A stretch of DNA of 33,236 bases from Bacteroidota bacterium (lineage in GTDB: Bacteria; Bacteroidota; Bacteroidia; UKL13-3), in assembly GCA_040385895.1 (NCBI GenBank), contig JAZKGM010000105.1, forward strand, positions 1-33,236. Reading direction: 5' to 3'. The position numbers were made by a program, and so were the translations under genes. Shown piece by piece: positions 1 through 7,313 of the stretch. The notes beneath the pieces are model-generated. The model did not search any database and was not told the origin of the DNA. It worked only from the letters and a program-made list of their open reading frames with translations. Position 1 is the stretch's first letter. The number at the start of each line of letters is the position of its first letter.

Positions 1-136
1 TGTTATCAATAGGATTATGGATTAAATAGGTTAGGTACATTGCACCTGTATATGCATCATACTCTCCTATTGTTCCTGCTGGTGTCATTCCATTAGGCAT
101 ATTCGGATATATCGTAATTAAATTTGCCACACCCAT
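1..136 (-). CDS. possible N-terminal fragment of an unidentified protein; the ORF runs off the left edge
   Basis: cat at 134-136 opens a minus-strand frame MGVANLITIYPNMPNGMTPAGTIGEYDAYTGAMYLTYLIHNPIDN with no stop before position 1. No motif recognised. Confidence 0.25.
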   Translation of the reverse strand, partial: MGVANLITIYPNMPNGMTPAGTIGEYDAYTGAMYLTYLIHNPIDN

Positions 137-1260
137 ATTCTGATCATTTAGACTCAAAAATAATATTTTAAGCCACCTTTTGTGTTAGTTGCTTATATGT
201 TATTCCCCCAAAGGCTTTTTTAAGCACTTCATCAAGCTTTGCTAACTTCGGCAACTTCTTATGATTATGGCGGAAGTCGTATTCATTAAAGTATGATTGC
301 AGGTGTTTATCACTCATGTGATGTGAAACACCGATGTACCCACGCTTAAATAATCCCCAGTACCCTTCGATAGAATTAATGTGCACGGTTCCTTTATTTT
401 TAACGTATTGACCTTTCTGATGGCTAACAAAGTCGTGGGTATATCCTTCTTGTGACAATTTTTTATATGCTCTATGGCCGTCAGAGTATATTGTTGCTCC
501 TGGCTCAATGTGCCTATCAATAAGCTTCTGCGTAATTTTCTTTCTTTCACCTTCAACAACTACAGTTTTAACCTTTCCGCCTCTTTCAATCATTCCGAAT
601 ACTGCCGTATGTGTTTCCGCTGGATCAAATCTCTTCTTCCTCTCCGTCTTTCTCTGTAGTTTCCACCTGGTGTATTCGTGCATATTTTGTGCTCTTGGTC
701 CAACAAAGGTAGCATCAACCTCAACAATGCTTTCTGGAGAAGCCATGAAAGACTTTTGCTTAAGTGCAAAACGGATTCTCCCTAACATAAACCACGCTGT
801 GCGTTGTTGTACGCCTATCTCATCTGCTAATTGAGTTGAAGCGATGCCTTTAGCCTTATTGGTAACACACCAGATAGCCTCAAACCACTTATTTAGGGGA
901 ACATGAGTTCCATGAAATATAGTTCCTACAGTTACAGTAAACTGTTTACGGCAGTGGCCGCATTTGTATAACTTAGGATTTTTAAGCTTATAGATCTTAT
1001 CAGAGGTAGCGCAATGAGGACACACAGAAGCACCGTCCCAGAGCATTATTTCCAGGTATTGGCGACAAATGAGGTCAGTATTGAACGCCTTACGGAGTTC
1101 AAATAATGAGCGGCATTGATGCAAAGATTTAATCATATGGAGTAAACTACTTTTCACCTTCAAAGCTCGGATTGCACTACGCAACCTATCTGCGATAAAG
1201 GCGGAAAAAAATTTAACATCCAATTTTCAGCGGAAACGCCCGCCAATGCTCAATGTCAAT
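137..1260 (-). mobile_element. IS1595-family insertion sequence; ends not defined
   Basis: Single transposase ORF flanked by short non-coding stretches. I could not find terminal inverted repeats by eye, so the boundaries are only the limits set by neighbouring ORFs. Confidence 0.45.
168..1136 (-). CDS. IS1595-family transposase (N-terminal Zn-ribbon plus DDE domain)
   Basis: CPHC...CGHC zinc ribbon, then VEVDATFVG, IYSDGHRAY and INSIEGYWGLFKR...FRHNH, typical of IS1595/ISXO2-like DDE transposases. The track ORF (to 1223) begins with TTG. The first ATG (cat 1134-1136, MIKSLHQCRSLFELRKAF) gives the usual ~30 aa before the Zn ribbon. Confidence 0.9.
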   Translation of the reverse strand: MIKSLHQCRSLFELRKAFNTDLICRQYLEIMLWDGASVCPHCATSDKIYKLKNPKLYKCGHCRKQFTVTVGTIFHGTHVPLNKWFEAIWCVTNKAKGIASTQLADEIGVQQRTAWFMLGRIRFALKQKSFMASPESIVEVDATFVGPRAQNMHEYTRWKLQRKTERKKRFDPAETHTAVFGMIERGGKVKTVVVEGERKKITQKLIDRHIEPGATIYSDGHRAYKKLSQEGYTHDFVSHQKGQYVKNKGTVHINSIEGYWGLFKRGYIGVSHHMSDKHLQSYFNEYDFRHNHKKLPKLAKLDEVLKKAFGGITYKQLTQKVA

Positions 1261-1698
1261 TTACAATTTTTTAAGCCACACTTGATAATTGATCCCATTT
1301 TGGCCGTTACTTATGTCTTTCATTTCACTGTTAAGTTCACCAAACCGTATAAAATTCCTTGGAACTAAACCCGATAAATCTCCTATGGGTGTTCCTTCTA
1401 AGATCAGTGAATATTGACTACCAGATGTAGTTAATTGATAGTTGCTTCTGACAGAGTTGTACATATACAAAAACGAATTAATGAAATAGAGTGTGTCGCT
1501 TCTTTCAGTAGTTTGGAAGCCATTGGACCATTTATAAAGCATCCAGGTTGTTCCAACAATGCTATCTATATCATTATTCCCAAGGGTGTCAGTTTGGACA
1601 ACTCCACCATAAGGCGGCTTATTTATTGGCTTTATTTCTTCTTTCTCGCAAGCTGAAAACCCGATAACCGCGATTGCAAGGCTTAAAATTGCTTTCAT
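1261..1698 (-). CDS. small lipoprotein, function unknown
   Basis: 145 aa. Lipoprotein signal MKAILSLAIAVIGFSAC. Its ATG lies 2 nt after the stop of the upstream frameshifted gene. Confidence 0.7.
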   Translation of the reverse strand: MKAILSLAIAVIGFSACEKEEIKPINKPPYGGVVQTDTLGNNDIDSIVGTTWMLYKWSNGFQTTERSDTLYFINSFLYMYNSVRSNYQLTTSGSQYSLILEGTPIGDLSGLVPRNFIRFGELNSEMKDISNGQNGINYQVWLKKL

Positions 1699-1700
1699 AG

Positions 1701-2173
1701 TTAGTTAATACGTTTAAAATATAATTTGTTAAAATAGGCGGTGTTTACTCCATTCAATGCCTGTCTTCTTTCTCCAGTCACAAAAGAGACTTCATTGCTT
1801 CCGATCTTGTCTATTGTTAAAACACGAGCAGATCCGTTTTCAAGCCCATATATGCGAATTGAATATCGTTCGTATGCTACTTCATAACTAATAGTTCATT
1901 GAGCTTAAAATCCTCTTCAAATTGCCAGGTTGTTTTATTCTGTGAGATAAAATCAATCGGCAGGTTTAAACCGGATAAATCCATTTGGCTATTCAATTTG
2001 GTTGGTGAAAAGTGGTTGTAATAAATCACTCCACCATTTTCCATGTTTTCAGAGTAAACTTCTCCATTAACCAGTAACCATTTTCCTTGTAATGAATATG
2101 ATTCTTGGTTTTCCTTTTTGCATGAAAATAAAAAGGAGGAGATAAATAAAAGAATGAGTGTATAACTTTTCAT
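1701..2173 (-). pseudogene. small lipoprotein gene interrupted by a frameshift
   Basis: ATG at 2171-2173 gives MKSYTLILLFISSFLFSCKK (lipobox). That frame stops at 1877-1879. A second frame is open from 1895 to the TAA at 1701-1703 (TISYEVAYERYSIRIYGLENGSARVLTIDKIGSNEVSFVTGERRQALNGVNTAYFNKLYFKRIN) and has no start codon of its own. The frame change must lie in 1880-1895. Confidence 0.6.
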
Positions 2174-2183
2174 CAGTAGAAAT

Positions 2184-3014
2184 TCAATTCGAACAGTAAT
2201 AATCACCACTACTATTTAGACATCCTGTCCTTGAATCTACATAAATCTTTATTGTTCCACCTGGAGTCGCCAATGATTCACCTGTTATCAGTCCTCTTGT
2301 TTGACTTAAGGCTATAAATGAAAGGTTAAAATATGCATCGGAATAGTTAATATTGATTGTGTTTGATATTTTAACGACAATGCTTCTGTCATTTGAATAG
2401 AACATGCGGTTAGATACGTAGTTATACAAGCTGGATTTGTCAGTAAAAACGGTTACATATCCATTACTATTTCGAAGGTTGTTTTCTTCCTGTTGTTTAA
2501 TTATGTCAAGTTGTGTATCAATACTGGTTATCTTCATATCTATTGACGCTTTAAGTGATCTGAACTCATCTACATCAACTTCATATTTTTTGCACGTTTC
2601 AATATAATTTTCAATCCTGTTTTGAATCTGATGTAATTGGTATGCGTAACTTTTAGACTGCTTTGGATCATTGGCTGTCGGTTTTTTTAGATTGTCTATC
2701 TGGCTGCGAATAGAATTTCCTTCTTCTAATAGGTTCAATTGGCTAACCCGTTTTTGAATTGATTCTAAAAGGCTCTTGTTATCATAAGTTAGTTCTTTCA
2801 TATGTGCGTTGTACCCCAAGTCTATTACATCCTTTTCCAATTGTTCTAAGCGGTTTCGCACCTGCCAGAGATTAGTTTCATTAATTGAGAGTTGGTTAAT
2901 GCTGTCGAAGCGAAGTGATAGAACTGCTTTTTGATCTTCAATTTTTGATGATTCAGAGTTGCAGGAAAGCAGGAATAGAATTGAAAAGGTCCAGAGAGAA
3001 AAAAATAATTTCAT
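2184..3014 (-). CDS. coiled-coil lipoprotein, function unknown
   Basis: Likely start is the ATG at 3012-3014 (MKLFFSLWTFSILFLLSCNSE, lipobox). About 170 aa is heptad-like Q/E/K/L-rich sequence, followed by a beta-rich C-terminal part. Stop lies 10 nt before the next gene's start. Confidence 0.7.
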   Translation of the reverse strand: MKLFFSLWTFSILFLLSCNSESSKIEDQKAVLSLRFDSINQLSINETNLWQVRNRLEQLEKDVIDLGYNAHMKELTYDNKSLLESIQKRVSQLNLLEEGNSIRSQIDNLKKPTANDPKQSKSYAYQLHQIQNRIENYIETCKKYEVDVDEFRSLKASIDMKITSIDTQLDIIKQQEENNLRNSNGYVTVFTDKSSLYNYVSNRMFYSNDRSIVVKISNTININYSDAYFNLSFIALSQTRGLITGESLATPGGTIKIYVDSRTGCLNSSGDYYCSN

Positions 3015-3051
3015 AGCGTTGTCATTTAATACCACAATTTTAAACAATGCG

Positions 3052-3063
3052 GTCATTAATGAC
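3052..3063. promoter_or_regulatory. perfect 12-bp palindrome GTCATTAATGAC in the divergent control region
   Basis: Read directly. Lies between the lipoprotein operon start (3014) and the XRE start (3116). Confidence 0.3.
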
Positions 3064-3086
3064 AACAAAAAGTTTTCTATAAAAAT

Positions 3087-3111
3087 CCACTTTTCACCTA
3101 CCTAAAAGTGG
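3087..3111. promoter_or_regulatory. inverted repeat CCACTTTT-N9-AAAAGTGG, candidate XRE operator
   Basis: Perfect 8-bp arms at 3087-3094 and 3104-3111, ending 4 nt before the XRE ATG. Confidence 0.4.
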
Positions 3112-3115
3112 GTTA

Positions 3116-3352
3116 ATGGAAGTGCCAATTCTAAAGCGTGTAGGAGAAAATATAGCAAGGATCAGAAAGGAAAAGAAGATCACTCAAATTGAACTGGGTC
3201 ACAGATGTGACTTTGACAGATCCAACATGCGTAGAATTGAAGCTGGTAGGACCAACCCGACCTTGTTAACCTTGCAAAAGATAGCTACAGCACTGGATAC
3301 AACAGTAGAAGAGATTGTAAGAATTGAGGATAAGAAGAAAAAAAATGTATAA
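3116..3352 (+). CDS. XRE/Cro-C1 family helix-turn-helix transcriptional regulator
   Basis: 78 aa. GENIARIRKEKKITQIELGHRCDFDRSNMRRIEAGRTNPTLLTLQKIATAL is a canonical HTH_3 pattern. Confidence 0.9.
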   Translation: MEVPILKRVGENIARIRKEKKITQIELGHRCDFDRSNMRRIEAGRTNPTLLTLQKIATALDTTVEEIVRIEDKKKKNV

Positions 3353-3372
3353 TACACATAAAGGATTCGAAT

Positions 3373-3669
3373 ATGTCAGCATTACAGATAGCACAAGAAA
3401 TACTTAAATATCCCAAGTACACAGTAACGTTGTCAAAGCTTGGTGGCAATGTTATTCGTTTTGGATTGGAGCCATTCGGAATACAAATTGTTATCCAAGC
3501 AGAACCCATCCCTCATGAAAAAAGGAGATGGCAAATCGAAAATAAAGAAGAGTTACATGAGGTACTGAGATTAGTTCAGCATGAGGTTATGAACGCAGAG
3601 GATTTAAACAATATAGATTTCGATGATATTCCAGAGGAATCTACTATTTATCTCGTGGTGGTGATGTAA
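3373..3669 (+). CDS. hypothetical protein (98 aa, acidic C-terminus)
   Basis: ORF starts 20 nt after the XRE stop on the same strand. No motif recognised. Confidence 0.5.
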   Translation: MSALQIAQEILKYPKYTVTLSKLGGNVIRFGLEPFGIQIVIQAEPIPHEKRRWQIENKEELHEVLRLVQHEVMNAEDLNNIDFDDIPEESTIYLVVVM

Positions 3670-3853
3670 TTAGAATATATGGTTTATTAAATACTCTTAT
3701 TATAGAATCATCCACTTCATCCAGATCTCTATCGGGTATAAACAATTTATCGGGAGCTTTAAAATGCAGTTGACTTTCTTTTTCATTAAAGATTATCTCT
3801 GAATATCCAAACTCAGTGAGTTTTTCCAATAACGTAACAATACCCTCGCTCAT
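3644..3853 (-). CDS. hypothetical protein (69 aa)
   Basis: ORF only. Its 3' end overlaps the 3' end of 3373-3669 by 26 nt. Confidence 0.4.
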   Translation of the reverse strand: MSEGIVTLLEKLTEFGYSEIIFNEKESQLHFKAPDKLFIPDRDLDEVDDSIIRVFNKPYILITSPPRDK

Positions 3854-3895
3854 AATTTCCTTTCTTTATAAATATTCCATTCCTTGTCAAAAGTC

Positions 3896-4078
3896 TTAGT
3901 TATGCCTTAAGCTTTCAACGGTGGCGTTACATTTTAATACCAGATCCTGGATTAATTCTATCTTGAGCTGTGAGCTTATCTTCTCCTTTAATACAATATT
4001 GATAGACCCTAACGTGTCTTCGTAGGTGTAATTGATATTGGAGGCAAGGCTTTTAATTTTAAGCGGACTTATCATCAT
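3896..4078 (-). CDS. hypothetical protein (60 aa)
   Basis: ORF only. In tandem with 3644-3853 and divergent from the 4149 cassette. Confidence 0.35.
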   Translation of the reverse strand: MMISPLKIKSLASNINYTYEDTLGSINIVLKEKISSQLKIELIQDLVLKCNATVESLRHN

Positions 4079-4124
4079 TGATAAATAGTCAACCGCTTTT
4101 CAATAGACTTATTGGGAGAAAAAT

Positions 4125-4132
4125 TATATTTG
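4125..4132 (+). promoter_or_regulatory. Bacteroidetes-type -7 promoter element TATATTTG (consensus TAnnTTTG)
   Basis: Exact match to the consensus, 16 nt upstream of the ATG at 4149. The same motif class sits just upstream of mutY, ftsK and the OmpA-like gene in this window. Confidence 0.4.
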
Positions 4133-4148
4133 AGCATAACATGAAACA

Positions 4149-4601
4149 ATGGATACAATAATTTGGGGAATTTCAGTAAGAGATTGGCTCGGAGTATTAA
4201 AGTTTCTATTTACTTTTCTTACGTTTATAGTTGCAGTTGTAGTGCAGCGGAAGATAAGTAGAATAAACAGACGACACCTGTTTAAAAAACTTGTACCTGG
4301 ACATATAAAAAATCTTCGCGAAATAGGAAAAAACATTAATCTATATCTTCTCCAAGGATTTAATGAAAATGGAAATTTATTGAGAAGAGAGGTTTCGAAA
4401 AGTAGGATAGAGTTAAAATACATTACCTCGAAACTAAATTATTCGAGCCGCTTCCCATTTTACTGGTGGATTTGGCGGCTTAGGCTTAATGGTCTTAAGA
4501 CAAAACAAGATGCTGATATTGCATACGATGTTATTCTTAAGTGCGAAACTGAATTAATTGCTTTACAGAAAGAGTTTAATAATAGTATTGTGTATGTTTA
4601 A
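4149..4601 (+). CDS. single-pass membrane protein, function unknown (cassette gene 1)
   Basis: 150 aa. One hydrophobic helix (WLGVLKFLFTFLTFIVAVVV) followed by a basic stretch (QRKISRINRRH) and a helical tail. Confidence 0.6.
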   Translation: MDTIIWGISVRDWLGVLKFLFTFLTFIVAVVVQRKISRINRRHLFKKLVPGHIKNLREIGKNINLYLLQGFNENGNLLRREVSKSRIELKYITSKLNYSSRFPFYWWIWRLRLNGLKTKQDADIAYDVILKCETELIALQKEFNNSIVYV

Positions 4602-4995
4602 TCAAGAAAATAAAATCCTTCAAGCCATTCAAAAATTTATAAGAGATACAAGAGATGGGACAATGACTTGGGATTCCGTTAGTAAGGTTCCATATAGTCT
4701 GTCTCCTTCGGAACAGATAAAGGAAAACTCATATGTAGCATCTTCACAGGGAAGGAAAATTCGTTTCTATAAATATTTTGCAAATGAAATAACTCCAGAT
4801 GGGGTTACAATTCTAACACCTCATTATCGATTAGAAATTCTTAGTTCTGAGACGGATAAAGTGCAGTACTCTTTTCCAGAGTATAGTGCATTGGGTGATT
4901 TACATGATTCTATCACATACAAGACATCCCGAATGGACGATTTCTTTGAAAACCTTTTAAAAGGAGAGACAAATAAGGATAACGATTTCGTGTAG
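4594..4995 (+). CDS. hypothetical soluble protein (cassette gene 2)
   Basis: The likely start ATG at 4594 lies within ATGTTTAA, so it overlaps the upstream stop (4599-4601) by 8 nt. The track ORF from 4558 is a longer alternative. 133 aa, no motif recognised. Confidence 0.55.
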   Translation: MFNQENKILQAIQKFIRDTRDGTMTWDSVSKVPYSLSPSEQIKENSYVASSQGRKIRFYKYFANEITPDGVTILTPHYRLEILSSETDKVQYSFPEYSALGDLHDSITYKTSRMDDFFENLLKGETNKDNDFV

Positions 4996-5022
4996 ATTTA
5001 TGAGCTATTTGTTTAACGTATA

Positions 5023-5778
5023 ATGGCAATAACTGATAAAACCAGGAAAATGCTTTGGGCTAAATCGGGAAACCGATGCTTTTTATGCAAGGTAGAATTG
5101 GTGCAGCAACCGGATCAATTGACTAAAAACGTAATTATTGGAGAAGAATGTCATATTGTTTCTCAAAAAAAAGATGGTCCGAGGGGATCATATTCTTATA
5201 CTGGCGATTTTGATAGTTACGATAACCTGGTTTTGCTATGTGCTAATCATCATAAAATTGTTGATGACCAAACAGAGGTTTATACAGTTGAATTTTTATT
5301 GCTTGGAAAGGGCCTGCATGAGAATTGGGTTAAGACTACACTCGAAAGGGACGTTTCGGCCTTTAATAACGATGAGTATAACATCAAAAGTTTAGCTAAA
5401 ATTAAAAATGGAAAAGCACTCGTAGATATAATAACTGGTAATCATGCGCATCAATTCGATCATGATGAATTAAAAACTAAAGAAGAAGCCGAAAAGATAG
5501 GTGGATTGTTTGATTTATTGAGAGATTGGGGCGATGTAATGTCAGATGTTAGTATGAGTGAAAGAACACAGTTGAGTGTTGATTTGAATGACGAGCTTGA
5601 TACACTAAAACAATTGGAATTTGTACTATTTGGTCTTCAAAGGAAAATGCGCATAAATGATGCGACCAAATCTCTTATAACAATCACTTATTTGGTTGCT
5701 GCAAGGCAAGACAATCCATCAATTGTAGGAGATTTTCTAATCATGAGATTCCCCAAACAGGTAAATTTTACGTTTTAA
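5023..5778 (+). CDS. HNH (His-Me finger) endonuclease with an uncharacterised ~150-aa C-terminal domain (cassette gene 3)
   Basis: CFLC ... EECHIVSQKKDGPRG ... YDNLVLLCANHHKIVDD gives the HNH catalytic H/N/H plus Cys/His zinc ligands in the first ~90 aa. The remainder is not recognisable. Confidence 0.85.
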   Translation: MAITDKTRKMLWAKSGNRCFLCKVELVQQPDQLTKNVIIGEECHIVSQKKDGPRGSYSYTGDFDSYDNLVLLCANHHKIVDDQTEVYTVEFLLLGKGLHENWVKTTLERDVSAFNNDEYNIKSLAKIKNGKALVDIITGNHAHQFDHDELKTKEEAEKIGGLFDLLRDWGDVMSDVSMSERTQLSVDLNDELDTLKQLEFVLFGLQRKMRINDATKSLITITYLVAARQDNPSIVGDFLIMRFPKQVNFTF

Positions 5779-5779
5779 C

Positions 5780-6066
5780 ATGGAACTTAAAGACTTTATA
5801 AACGTACTCTTCTCGATATTGTTAACGGAGTCGAAGAGGCAAATATAGAAAAAGACCGTTTTAGGCTCTCCAGTCAAAAACATCATGGAACTGGTGAAAA
5901 TGGACAAAAGGTAGAATTTGATGTATCGGTAATTAATGAAGCTTCTGAACATGACCTTAAAGGTGGGAAAAAGGTAGCTTTGGTAAATTTGGGAGCCGGA
6001 TCTAAAGCCACGAAATCCAACCAAAATGTACATAAAATCAAATTCGAGGTCTTTGTAAAAGAGTGA
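5780..6066 (+). pseudogene. trypco2-like small protein, readable only across a frame change (cassette gene 4)
   Basis: ATG at 5780, 1 nt after the HNH stop, gives MELKDFINVLFS... and stops at 5846-5848. The -1 frame is open over 5791-6066 with no start codon: DIVNGVEEANIEKDRFRLSSQKHHGTGENGQKVEFDVSVINEASEHDLKGGKKVALVNLGAGSKATKSNQNVHKIKFEVFVKE. From memory, the F-x-h...VEhxV...GGxKh...G...HxIKh pattern resembles trypco2 family proteins. Confidence 0.5.
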
Positions 6067-6387
6067 TTTTGAGGACTAACGCGGGAACGTACCTATTAAC
6101 CCCGGGAATTATAATGTATAGATTGTAAGTATTTTACAACTAAGAAAGTGCTTAAAAAAATTACATTATCTCAAAACACGTGTTTTTTTGGTATTTTAAA
6201 ATACATAGTGTCCAGATTTGTGAAACAAGTGTAGTAAAAATTGTTCAGGTTAATATTTCTGCAGTCCTTTGAATTGTCAAATTCAGCCTGATCCTGCTTT
6301 CTTCCAAGGCTTTTTCCCAAGATTGCCATCTTTGGCATCGTTTTTATAATAGAGTGGGTACAATACTTTTTTTCATTGATAAAATCT

Positions 6388-6428
6388 AAAAAAGCCTGTT
6401 GAGGATAGCTACCACAACAGGCTTTTTT
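6388..6428. terminator. bidirectional rho-independent terminator
   Basis: AAAAAAGCCTGTTG (6388-6401) pairs perfectly with CAACAGGCTTTTTT (6415-6428) around a 13-nt loop. A-tract and T-tract flanks serve both strands. Lies between the plus-strand island genes and the minus-strand OmpA-like gene. Confidence 0.8.
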
Positions 6429-6461
6429 AATGCGTCCGGTTTTCACCGTTTAGCTGTTTAT

Positions 6462-7313
6462 TTAATTACTATCCAGGATCTCAGCAATTTCATCCAGGTT
6501 TGGCGTTACGATAATTTCGATGCGCCTGTTCTTTCTGCGCGCTTCTGCTGTTGGCGCAGGGTCTATCGGGTAATACTCCGCACGGCCTGATGCAATAAAA
6601 CGGGCCGGGGCCACTTTGCCGGCCTTGTTCATTAAGCGGATCACCGAAGTGGCACGAAGCACACTGATGTCCCAGTTGTCTTTAAATGCTTTGCCCTTAT
6701 AAGGAATATCATCGGTATGGCCTTCAACCGTCAAGATCGTGGTGGGATCTTCATTTAATGCCGTAGAAATTTCGATAAGCGCCTGGCGGCCTTCGGGGTT
6801 CACATCCACCTTGCCTGATTGAAACAAGAGGCGTTCGTCAAGCGAAATGTACACCTTCCCCCCTACCACATGCACATTAACCCCTTTATCTTTAAAGCCC
6901 AATAAGGCATTATGCAGGCGTTCGCGGGTGGCACGCATCATCGAATCTTTACGGAACAGCACGGCTTCCAGCTCGGCAATTTTTCCGGCCGACAATTTCA
7001 GGCGGCTTGCCTGGTTTGATAATTCTTCCCGTAACCGTCTTCTTTCTGCTTCCAGTCTTGCCCGCTCAGCATCTCCCTGGTTCATATTAAGCCTGCAAAC
7101 AGAATCAATATAAGCGGAATCCCTGCGGATGCGGTCCACTTCAGCAAGCAACATCGCGATGCGTTTGTCACCAATATTATTCTTTGCCCTCAGCATCTGG
7201 TACTGGCCGTCTGAATACACCCAAAGGGCATACATATCATCATATTTGCGCTGAGATACGCAGGATGAAAGGACAAGAAGGATGGCTACTGATAAAAAAC
7301 TTTTGATGCGCAT
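6462..7313 (-). CDS. OmpA/MotB-family lipoprotein (peptidoglycan-binding OmpA C-terminal domain)
   Basis: Lipoprotein signal MRIKSFLSVAILLVLSSC, a coiled-coil middle, then TVEGHTDDIPY...NWDISVLRATSV...ASGRAEYYP...RRKNRRIEIIV. Confidence 0.9.
   Translation of the reverse strand: MRIKSFLSVAILLVLSSCVSQRKYDDMYALWVYSDGQYQMLRAKNNIGDKRIAMLLAEVDRIRRDSAYIDSVCRLNMNQGDAERARLEAERRRLREELSNQASRLKLSAGKIAELEAVLFRKDSMMRATRERLHNALLGFKDKGVNVHVVGGKVYISLDERLLFQSGKVDVNPEGRQALIEISTALNEDPTTILTVEGHTDDIPYKGKAFKDNWDISVLRATSVIRLMNKAGKVAPARFIASGRAEYYPIDPAPTAEARRKNRRIEIIVTPNLDEIAEILDSN

Follow-up and report, generated by a model that had tools for sequence, protein, structure and literature searches.

The stretch of DNA analysed here, referred to below as the window, is a contig of 33,236 nt from a Bacteroidota bacterium of the lineage UKL13-3 (GenBank assembly GCA_040385895.1, contig JAZKGM010000105.1). 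It carries a block of four genes on the same strand, which we call A, B, C and D, between positions 4149 and 6066. An earlier note, made from the sequence alone, had read this block as one defence system in which a membrane partner and an adaptor accompany a nuclease effector, and had singled out beforehand the co-occurrence of the four genes' homologues as one of the comparisons that could refute this reading. About 170 related loci were compared in all. Homologues of the four genes did not co-occur in 80 loci of C homologues, 80 loci of D homologues and 13 loci of B homologues, and the A-B pair recurred alone; the proposal of one system is not supported by this comparison.

The layout reported for the block agrees with the open reading frame (ORF) list and with the sequence. 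Genes A and B overlap by 8 nt (the ATG of B is at 4594 and the TAA stop of A at 4599-4601), B and C are separated by a gap of 27 nt, and C is followed after 1 nt by the ATG at 5780 with which D begins (Table 1). The single N-terminal transmembrane (TM) helix predicted for A was also recovered, its hydrophobic stretch being residues 14-33, LGVLKFLFTFLTFIVAVVVQ. A candidate Bacteroidota -7 promoter element, TATATTTG, is present 16 nt 5' of the A ATG, as had been noted; the window shows no excess of the motif TAnnTTTG (25 matches versus 35.6 expected), so that the promoter call at this site is a matter of its position. Downstream of the block, the terminator that had been proposed corresponds to a strong hairpin with 18-nt arms that are 94% complementary and with a T-run. 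This hairpin is probably a bidirectional terminator, common to the A-D side and to the convergent OmpA-family gene (6462-7313). Genes A, B, C and D are probably co-transcribed and packed together, yet without forming an obligate system.

Table 1. Features of the four-gene block and of the island around it (positions in the window).
Feature	Position	Strand	Description	Basis
Gene A	4149-4601	+	150 aa, N-terminal TM helix then helical tail	ORF list
Gene B	4594-4995	+	133 aa, predicted soluble alpha+beta protein	ORF list
Gene C	5023-5778	+	251 aa, HNH protein; 27-nt gap after B	
C N-terminal domain	5023-5352	+	Residues 1-110, Cap5/SPARHA-clade HNH (His-Me finger) nuclease	PADLOC, PDB sequence, Foldseek
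C C-terminal domain	5356-5778	+	Residues 112-251, family-specific; proposed sensor/regulatory domain	
Gene D	5780-6066	+	Trypco2/Pepco-like, small, beta-rich; 95 aa when repaired; 1-nt deletion at about 5800	
Candidate -7 promoter element	4125-4132	+	TATATTTG, 16 nt 5' of the A ATG	
Hairpin with A and T runs at its sides	6387-6429		Inverted repeat I3	
Variable cargo slot	4102-6035		A, B, C and most of D	blastn versus L182
orf60	3896-4078	-	Conserved backbone gene; borders the cargo slot	
XRE-family HTH regulator	3116-3352	+	Within the island	Pfam HTH_3, E = 5.8e-12
IS1595-family transposase	168-1223	-	Far end of the island	Pfam DDE_Tnp_IS1595 (3.8e-35), Zn_ribbon_IS1595

Gene C is the most interesting part of the block. 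The HNH/His-Me finger motifs announced for its N-terminus are present as C19xxC22, E41-E42-C43-H44 (GEECH) and N68...H77. The Pfam model HNH_2 scored just below threshold (20.8 bits for a cut-off of 21), and the HNH identity was accepted because of the matches obtained with PADLOC and with Protein Data Bank (PDB) sequences. The PADLOC profiles that matched C were PDC-M68A (1.4e-25), SAVED_HNH (1.7e-24), endonuclease effectors of CBASS (down to 1e-7) and SduA, all matches being confined to residues 1-121. Among PDB sequences the best match was 9om4_A, the HNH-APAZ protein of SPARHA (E = 2.4e-21 over residues 1-110), followed by Cap5 chains, which range from 4.7e-10 (7rwk) to 1e-5. The AlphaFold2 (AF2) model of C is confident (predicted local distance difference test score, pLDDT, 87.7) and consists of an N-terminal helix (residues 5-14), the HNH core and a C-terminal domain; when it was compared with the PDB by Foldseek, Cap5 structures were the sole matches with E < 1e-3 (about 5e-6). 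The HNH domain of C is therefore of a kind used by anti-phage effectors, as the earlier note had said.

Over 30 diverse homologues of C, residues H44, N68, H77, C43 and C73 and a GPR motif do not vary, and C19, C22 and E41 hardly do; judging from the sequence, the catalytic residues of the HNH domain are intact. The spacings E41-x-x-H44 and N68...H77 equal those of E50/H53 and N71/H80 in SPARHA, which comprise the bridge glutamate and the catalytic residues and were mutated in that system (PMC12738770).

The remainder of C, about 150 aa that had been left without assignment, received none from Pfam, from a PDB profile search or from Foldseek. No Pfam domain and no PADLOC match were found in this C-terminal domain, a profile of it retrieved nothing from the PDB sequences, including no Cap5 or SAVED chain, and Foldseek of the full model gave no independent structural match for it. 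The AF2 model is confident in this region and shows a beta-alpha-beta-alpha-alpha-beta-beta-beta topology. A protein-collection search with C returned at least 253 clusters, in which the best matches are full-length relatives of about 253 aa; the C-terminal 140 aa therefore belongs to a conserved family. This family spans Bacteroidota, Bacillota, Verrucomicrobiota, Chloroflexota and Campylobacterota.

The neighbourhood of C was analysed at 80 loci from 80 species (one genome per species, 6-kb flanks), whose hosts are Bacteroidota, Paenibacillus, Verrucomicrobiia, Chloroflexi, Campylobacterota and members of other groups. Genes A, B and D were not found by tblastn at any of the 80 loci, and no match was obtained there with a hidden Markov model (HMM) of the B family or with phmmer searches using A and D, all at E <= 10. 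All-versus-all clustering of the ORFs located less than 3.5 kb from C homologues yielded no conserved neighbour; at most 7 of the 80 loci shared a real cluster, that of an HsdM-like protein, and no Pfam family occurred in more than 3 of the 73 genes immediately upstream or of the 74 immediately downstream. The Pfam families beside C homologues (ResIII, Eco57I, AAA_15, AAA_21, RVT_1, DUF4062, AbiJ_NTD3, ThsA_Macro, nSTAND3 and integrases) are typical of defence islands. Plasmid relatives of C are alone too, one of them being located on an Escherichia coli plasmid between IS1 and IS5. The absence of a conserved partner, the varied defence-type neighbours and the lone plasmid copies lead us to conclude that C is a stand-alone gene of defence islands, and because its homologues lie in neighbourhoods of this type, it probably acts alone as a sensor-nuclease.

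The proteins of 140-185 aa encoded upstream of C homologues were also considered as a remote family. This was rejected because of their heterogeneous sequences, which on visual reading look like Shedu-like, TIR-like, reverse transcriptase and TM proteins. Four genes adjoining C homologues were inspected individually (L002:5149-5952, L040:4974-5843, L043:5085-5939 and L001:5708-6553, where L numbers designate the loci compared). A ThsA-Macro-like protein was recognized among them by a Pfam match, and Shedu-like DUF4263, reverse transcriptase and TIR-like proteins were recognized when the sequences were read by eye. Such neighbours are useful markers of the defence-island setting of C-family genes.

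HNH nucleases are common in phages, an IS1595 transposase is present in the island and C gave weak matches to PHROG HNH families, three facts that would suit a selfish homing or phage-packaging HNH, the block being in that case the remnant of a mobile element devoid of any defence role. We consider this very improbable. No match to C was found in 50,697 phage genomes, and a search of IMG/VR yielded four partial matches only, most of them limited to the HNH region. Furthermore, the best PHROG matches are of unknown function, and C has no terminase, intron or intein context; the phage packaging or homing context that the earlier note had named as counting against its reading was not found.

Comparison with known systems places the nuclease half of C and leaves its other half apart. 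Cap5, the HNH-SAVED effector of CBASS (7rwk, 7rwm, 8fm1, 8fmf), has the same type of HNH, with an N-terminal helix, zinc-binding cysteines and catalytic H/N/H residues as in C. However, Cap5 has a C-terminal SAVED domain, whereas the profile matches of C stop at about residue 120 with no Pfam SAVED, and neither the island ORFs scanned nor the commonest neighbours of the 80 C homologues included a CD-NTase. SPARHA HNH-APAZ (9om4; PMC12738770) is the closest sequence match of C with a solved structure, and the spacing between the bridge glutamate and the catalytic histidine is the same in both; by analogy, the two likely share activation of the HNH by oligomerization. They differ in that the match ends at residue 113 of the 435-aa 9om4 chain, C being without APAZ and having an unrelated C-terminal domain, and in that an Argonaute is missing both from the island ORFs scanned and from the commonest families beside C homologues.

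The best PADLOC match of C, PDC-M68 (M68A), is shared by all members of the C family analysed (30 of 30). The M68A profile has a length of 253, close to that of C, but only its positions 5-126, the HNH half, align; A, B and D match no PADLOC model at E <= 1, and no literature on PDC-M68 or on a 'Cap5-like' HNH was found. Similarly, the Shedu model (SduA) aligns with C only at the N-terminal HNH part (profile positions 19-120), and the PD-(D/E)xK nuclease of DUF4263 was not recovered. With Septu (PtuA/PtuB) and type II Zorya (ZorE) the likeness is limited to the general use of an HNH as a defence effector: C has no PADLOC match to PtuB or ZorE, no PtuA, ZorA or ZorB genes are present, and the PtuB and ZorE HNH domains stand apart from the Cap5/SPARHA type (PMC12738770). 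The gene set as a whole matched no named system, in agreement with what had been stated from the sequence.

A lone nuclease gene might also be a Type IV (modification-dependent) restriction endonuclease, in which the C-terminal domain of C would read modified phage DNA and guide cleavage by the HNH, with no abortive infection. Such an enzyme needs no methylase partner, the neighbourhoods of C homologues are rich in restriction genes, and fusions of an HNH with a reader of modified DNA form a known class (cited in PMC12738770). However, the HNH of C groups with the oligomerization-activated Cap5/SPARHA clade and not with the McrA or SRA types, and no similarity of the C-terminal domain to SRA, EVE, McrA-type or other readers was found by Pfam, by PDB sequence searches or by Foldseek. 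A new kind of reader is possible, and we regard a Type IV enzyme as rather unlikely.

Word-indexed homology searches with A or B returned only the window's own proteins. The possibility that A and B are spurious ORFs, which these searches had raised, was overturned by an exhaustive HMMER search with B, which identified 64 distant homologues (23-36% identity). The homologues are 101-219 aa long (most 116-147 aa, a few 170-219 aa), to which one 845-aa repeat protein has to be added. Eight B homologues were looked up in their genomic context, and a same-strand gene was present directly upstream in all eight, encoding a protein of 143-179 aa (two were cut by a contig end) and either overlapping the B homologue by 4-8 nt or separated from it by 5 nt at most. 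This upstream partner is homologous to A in seven of the eight contexts, which are the seven with DNA; for example, A shares 35% identity (E = 1e-15) with the product of the 179-aa gene upstream of the B homologue in L084. An alignment of the A family (A5) was built from the proteins upstream of B homologues, and the A-family HMM gave a match directly upstream of every B homologue with DNA, including truncated copies outside the profile (E = 3.8e-6).

Neither C nor D homologues were found at the loci of B homologues (13 loci for C), and no HNH gene was present near the eight that were looked up. In L084 the A-B pair is flanked by recA and a rhodanese gene, and in L091 it directly follows a type II restriction-modification pair. 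Since A-B recurs on its own in varied contexts, it constitutes an independent, uncharacterized two-gene module, which we infer to be self-contained and membrane-associated. The AF2 model of B (pLDDT 93) shows a helix, an antiparallel sheet and two helices; it had no significant match in the PDB (best E = 0.046) and one match in BFVD, an uncharacterized Siphoviridae protein (E = 1.5e-5, TM-score 0.62). Pfam, PADLOC, NCBIfam and PHROG gave no match for A-B, and no relative of solved structure was found.

Two peculiarities of these families were observed. In the 845-aa protein (P0132), residues 72-117 of B were matched in nine separate stretches, and the beta-hairpin core of B may also occur as a tandem repeat, as far as this alignment indicates. 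The A protein of the window (150 aa) is without about 20-25 middle residues that follow KLNYSS in the 159-179-aa homologues (alignment A5), and may be a shortened variant.

For gene D, the family named in the earlier note was retained and the ORF was not. The span 5780-6066 does not contain an intact ORF: the frame opened by the ATG stops after 22 codons, and three-frame translation places the body of D in another frame, without a start codon of its own. In a DNA alignment with four homologues, D of the window is short of one base at about position 5800 (TTTAT-AAACGT versus TTTATAAAACGT), and D is therefore a pseudogene or the product of an assembly error. The repaired D was used to find 80 homologous metagenomic loci, a sample that is biased, the search pattern having included MELKDFIK; the closest homologues are 65-78% identical to D in an unbroken alignment over residues 1-95. 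The window copy matched Pfam Trypco2 (PF19631) only weakly (E = 0.069, 13.9 bits for a cut-off of 24.2). The Trypco2-like assignment was accepted at the level of the family, because PF19631 is matched by 15 of 31 D-family members at E <= 0.01 (best 1.5e-7).

No C homologue was found at any of the 80 D loci. A same-strand gene is located within 30 nt upstream of D in 37 of 76 homologues, and the genes upstream of D homologues fall into at least seven clustered families plus 10 unclustered singletons. D homologues thus follow many unrelated genes, and the 1-nt junction between C and D is therefore one case of a family habit.

Trypco2, for which Pepco is another name, was introduced as a partner of trypsin-like proteases (PMC7159879), and Pepco was reported to be a beta-barrel pore toxin that is assembled in advance and becomes active once its C-terminal tail has been cleaved off by a protease (bioRxiv 10.1101/2025.11.14.688446). 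The D family resembles the protease modules of this type in that it matches Trypco2, is small and beta-rich and has the ...RIKF... motif in a C-terminal strand. These modules differ from D by having a protease beside them and a cleavable tail, whereas D of the window has neither and is frameshifted. The island ORFs scanned included no protease of the trypsin-like or caspase-like kind, and there was no protease among the 25 commonest Pfam families of 141 neighbours of D homologues. In D of the window and in the sequences nearest to it, KI[KN]F[EQ]VF is followed by only 4-10 residues, distant homologues have tails of about 5-40 aa, and a cleavable C-terminal tail after the conserved Ile was not found in the clade of the window D.

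Some D loci have features of their own. Homologues that start with MELKDFIK (L094-L173) are often located 3-30 nt downstream of a variable gene. At about nine gut-metagenome loci, a 99-aa helix-turn-helix (HTH) protein is encoded 6 nt upstream of D, which gives these loci a toxin-antitoxin-like look. The closest D homologue (78% identity; L096:3239-6919, also L097) belongs to an integrase-borne island, where it is preceded by a DUF1493-like 140-aa gene and followed by genes for two proteins with an N-terminal TM segment (137 and 143 aa), the architecture of which is like that of A.

The block occupies one end of an AT-rich island, whose insertion sequence and XRE regulator (Table 1) had been pointed out: the GC content rises from 0.32-0.37 to 0.45-0.49 at about position 6400. 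Related strains, in which the OmpA-family and RNase G genes are 86-92% identical in DNA to those of the window, were used for comparison. L183 (1689-1956) represents the empty site, as the OmpA-family gene is followed directly by a MazG-like gene. L182 (8112-16335) carries a different IS1595-associated island at the same place as window 1-6207. The segments common to the window and L182 in a blastn comparison are 167-2125 (IS1595 end), 3854-4101 (orf60) and 6036 onward (flank, to 9000). The IS1595 transposase gene is 92% identical in DNA to the L182 copy; orf60, which had no family in any library searched, is 78% identical in protein to a 61-aa L182 gene and borders the slot in both islands. 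In place of the DNA between 4101 and 6036, L182 has genes for a ParB-like protein of 468 aa, a D12 (adenine) methylase and a TM protein of 158 aa; genes A-D are absent, except for a remnant of about 30 nt from the 3' end of D. Because the cargo of L182 differs between the same flanks, A-D occupy a swappable slot. Such a slot fits a defence hot spot, and does not show that A-D work jointly. In this Bacteroidota lineage, the position beside the OmpA-family gene is a hot spot for integration.

No convincing recombination sites were found among the repeats at the borders of the cargo slot, and Rfam and tRNA scans of the island gave nothing. A perfect 14-nt inverted repeat, TTTTTTAAGCACTT / AAGTGCTTAAAAAA, is present near the island ends at 216-229 and 6146-6159, about 5.9 kb apart; it could be due to chance or mark the end of the island. 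The right-hand arm (6146-6159) is also present in L182. In a more distant relative, an insertion of about 9 kb (L178:11812-20684) separates the RNase G and OmpA-family genes, which are adjacent in the window. It encodes a TPR-histidine kinase, a response regulator and APH, HopA1-like and LanC-like proteins, none of which is encoded in the window.

We think it probable that one cargo slot here houses three independent modules, A-B, C and D, and that C is a stand-alone sensor-nuclease of the Cap5/SPARHA type with a new C-terminal domain. Several points weigh against this interpretation. The spacing of A-D is as compact as that of a true operon; one promoter-like element was found 5' of the block and one strong terminator 3' of it, with no others; and, compared with L182, the block was exchanged as one unit, as a single system would look. 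The 80 C loci were picked by sequence patterns and only eight B contexts were looked up, so that a lineage-specific association could be missed. In addition, the C-terminal domain of C has no recognizable ligand-binding or oligomerization signature, and the nature of the trigger is therefore a guess. Last, the gene structures, the family memberships, the lack of co-occurrence, the slot and the conserved catalytic residues are shown here, and a defence role of C, of A-B or of D, the trigger and activation by oligomerization are inferred.

Tight same-strand spacing, a single -7-like element upstream with a single terminator downstream, and replacement of the block as a unit are also what one lineage-specific defence system would present, with A-D acting as membrane partner, adaptor, HNH effector and Trypco2 accessory; the habit of D-family genes of lying directly downstream of a partner gene would agree with this as well. 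Nevertheless, we hold such a system to be distinctly unlikely: not one of the C, D or B loci enumerated above showed co-occurrence, A-B is found alone, for instance between recA and the rhodanese gene of L084, D is frameshifted, and C homologues stand alone wherever they were examined.

If A-B, C and D are independent, the following model can be proposed. The slot 4102-6035 of the low-GC, IS1595-associated island would carry three modules, probably co-transcribed, which would not make up an obligate system. The A product would be a small membrane-anchored helical protein and the B product a cytoplasmic alpha+beta protein. The C-terminal domain of C would hold the protein inactive until an infection-associated cue is sensed; the HNH domains would then oligomerize in the manner of Cap5 and SPARHA, by way of the N-terminal helix and with glutamate E41 as the bridge, and the oligomer would cut double-stranded DNA non-specifically, leading to abortive infection. 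D would be a small beta-barrel protein of the Trypco2/Pepco-like type, the window copy of which would be inactivated by the 1-nt deletion, or mis-assembled. We suggest, tentatively, that the C family may be an unrecognized single-gene anti-phage system, combining an HNH activated by oligomerization with an undescribed sensor of about 140 aa, and that A-B may, independently, be a new membrane-anchored module.

In conclusion, a four-gene cassette that looked attractive separates into three unrelated modules once co-occurrence is analysed, and operon-like compaction inside a defence island is no evidence for a multi-gene system. What is new here is a domain partner for a known effector type, in C, and an uncharacterized gene pair, A-B. 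Testing the stand-alone HNH family would cost little; should this family prove to be defensive, the C-terminal domain would act as a new switch for a nuclease of the Cap5/SPARHA type, and would represent a third class of sensor for this HNH effector, after SAVED and APAZ/prokaryotic Argonaute (pAgo).

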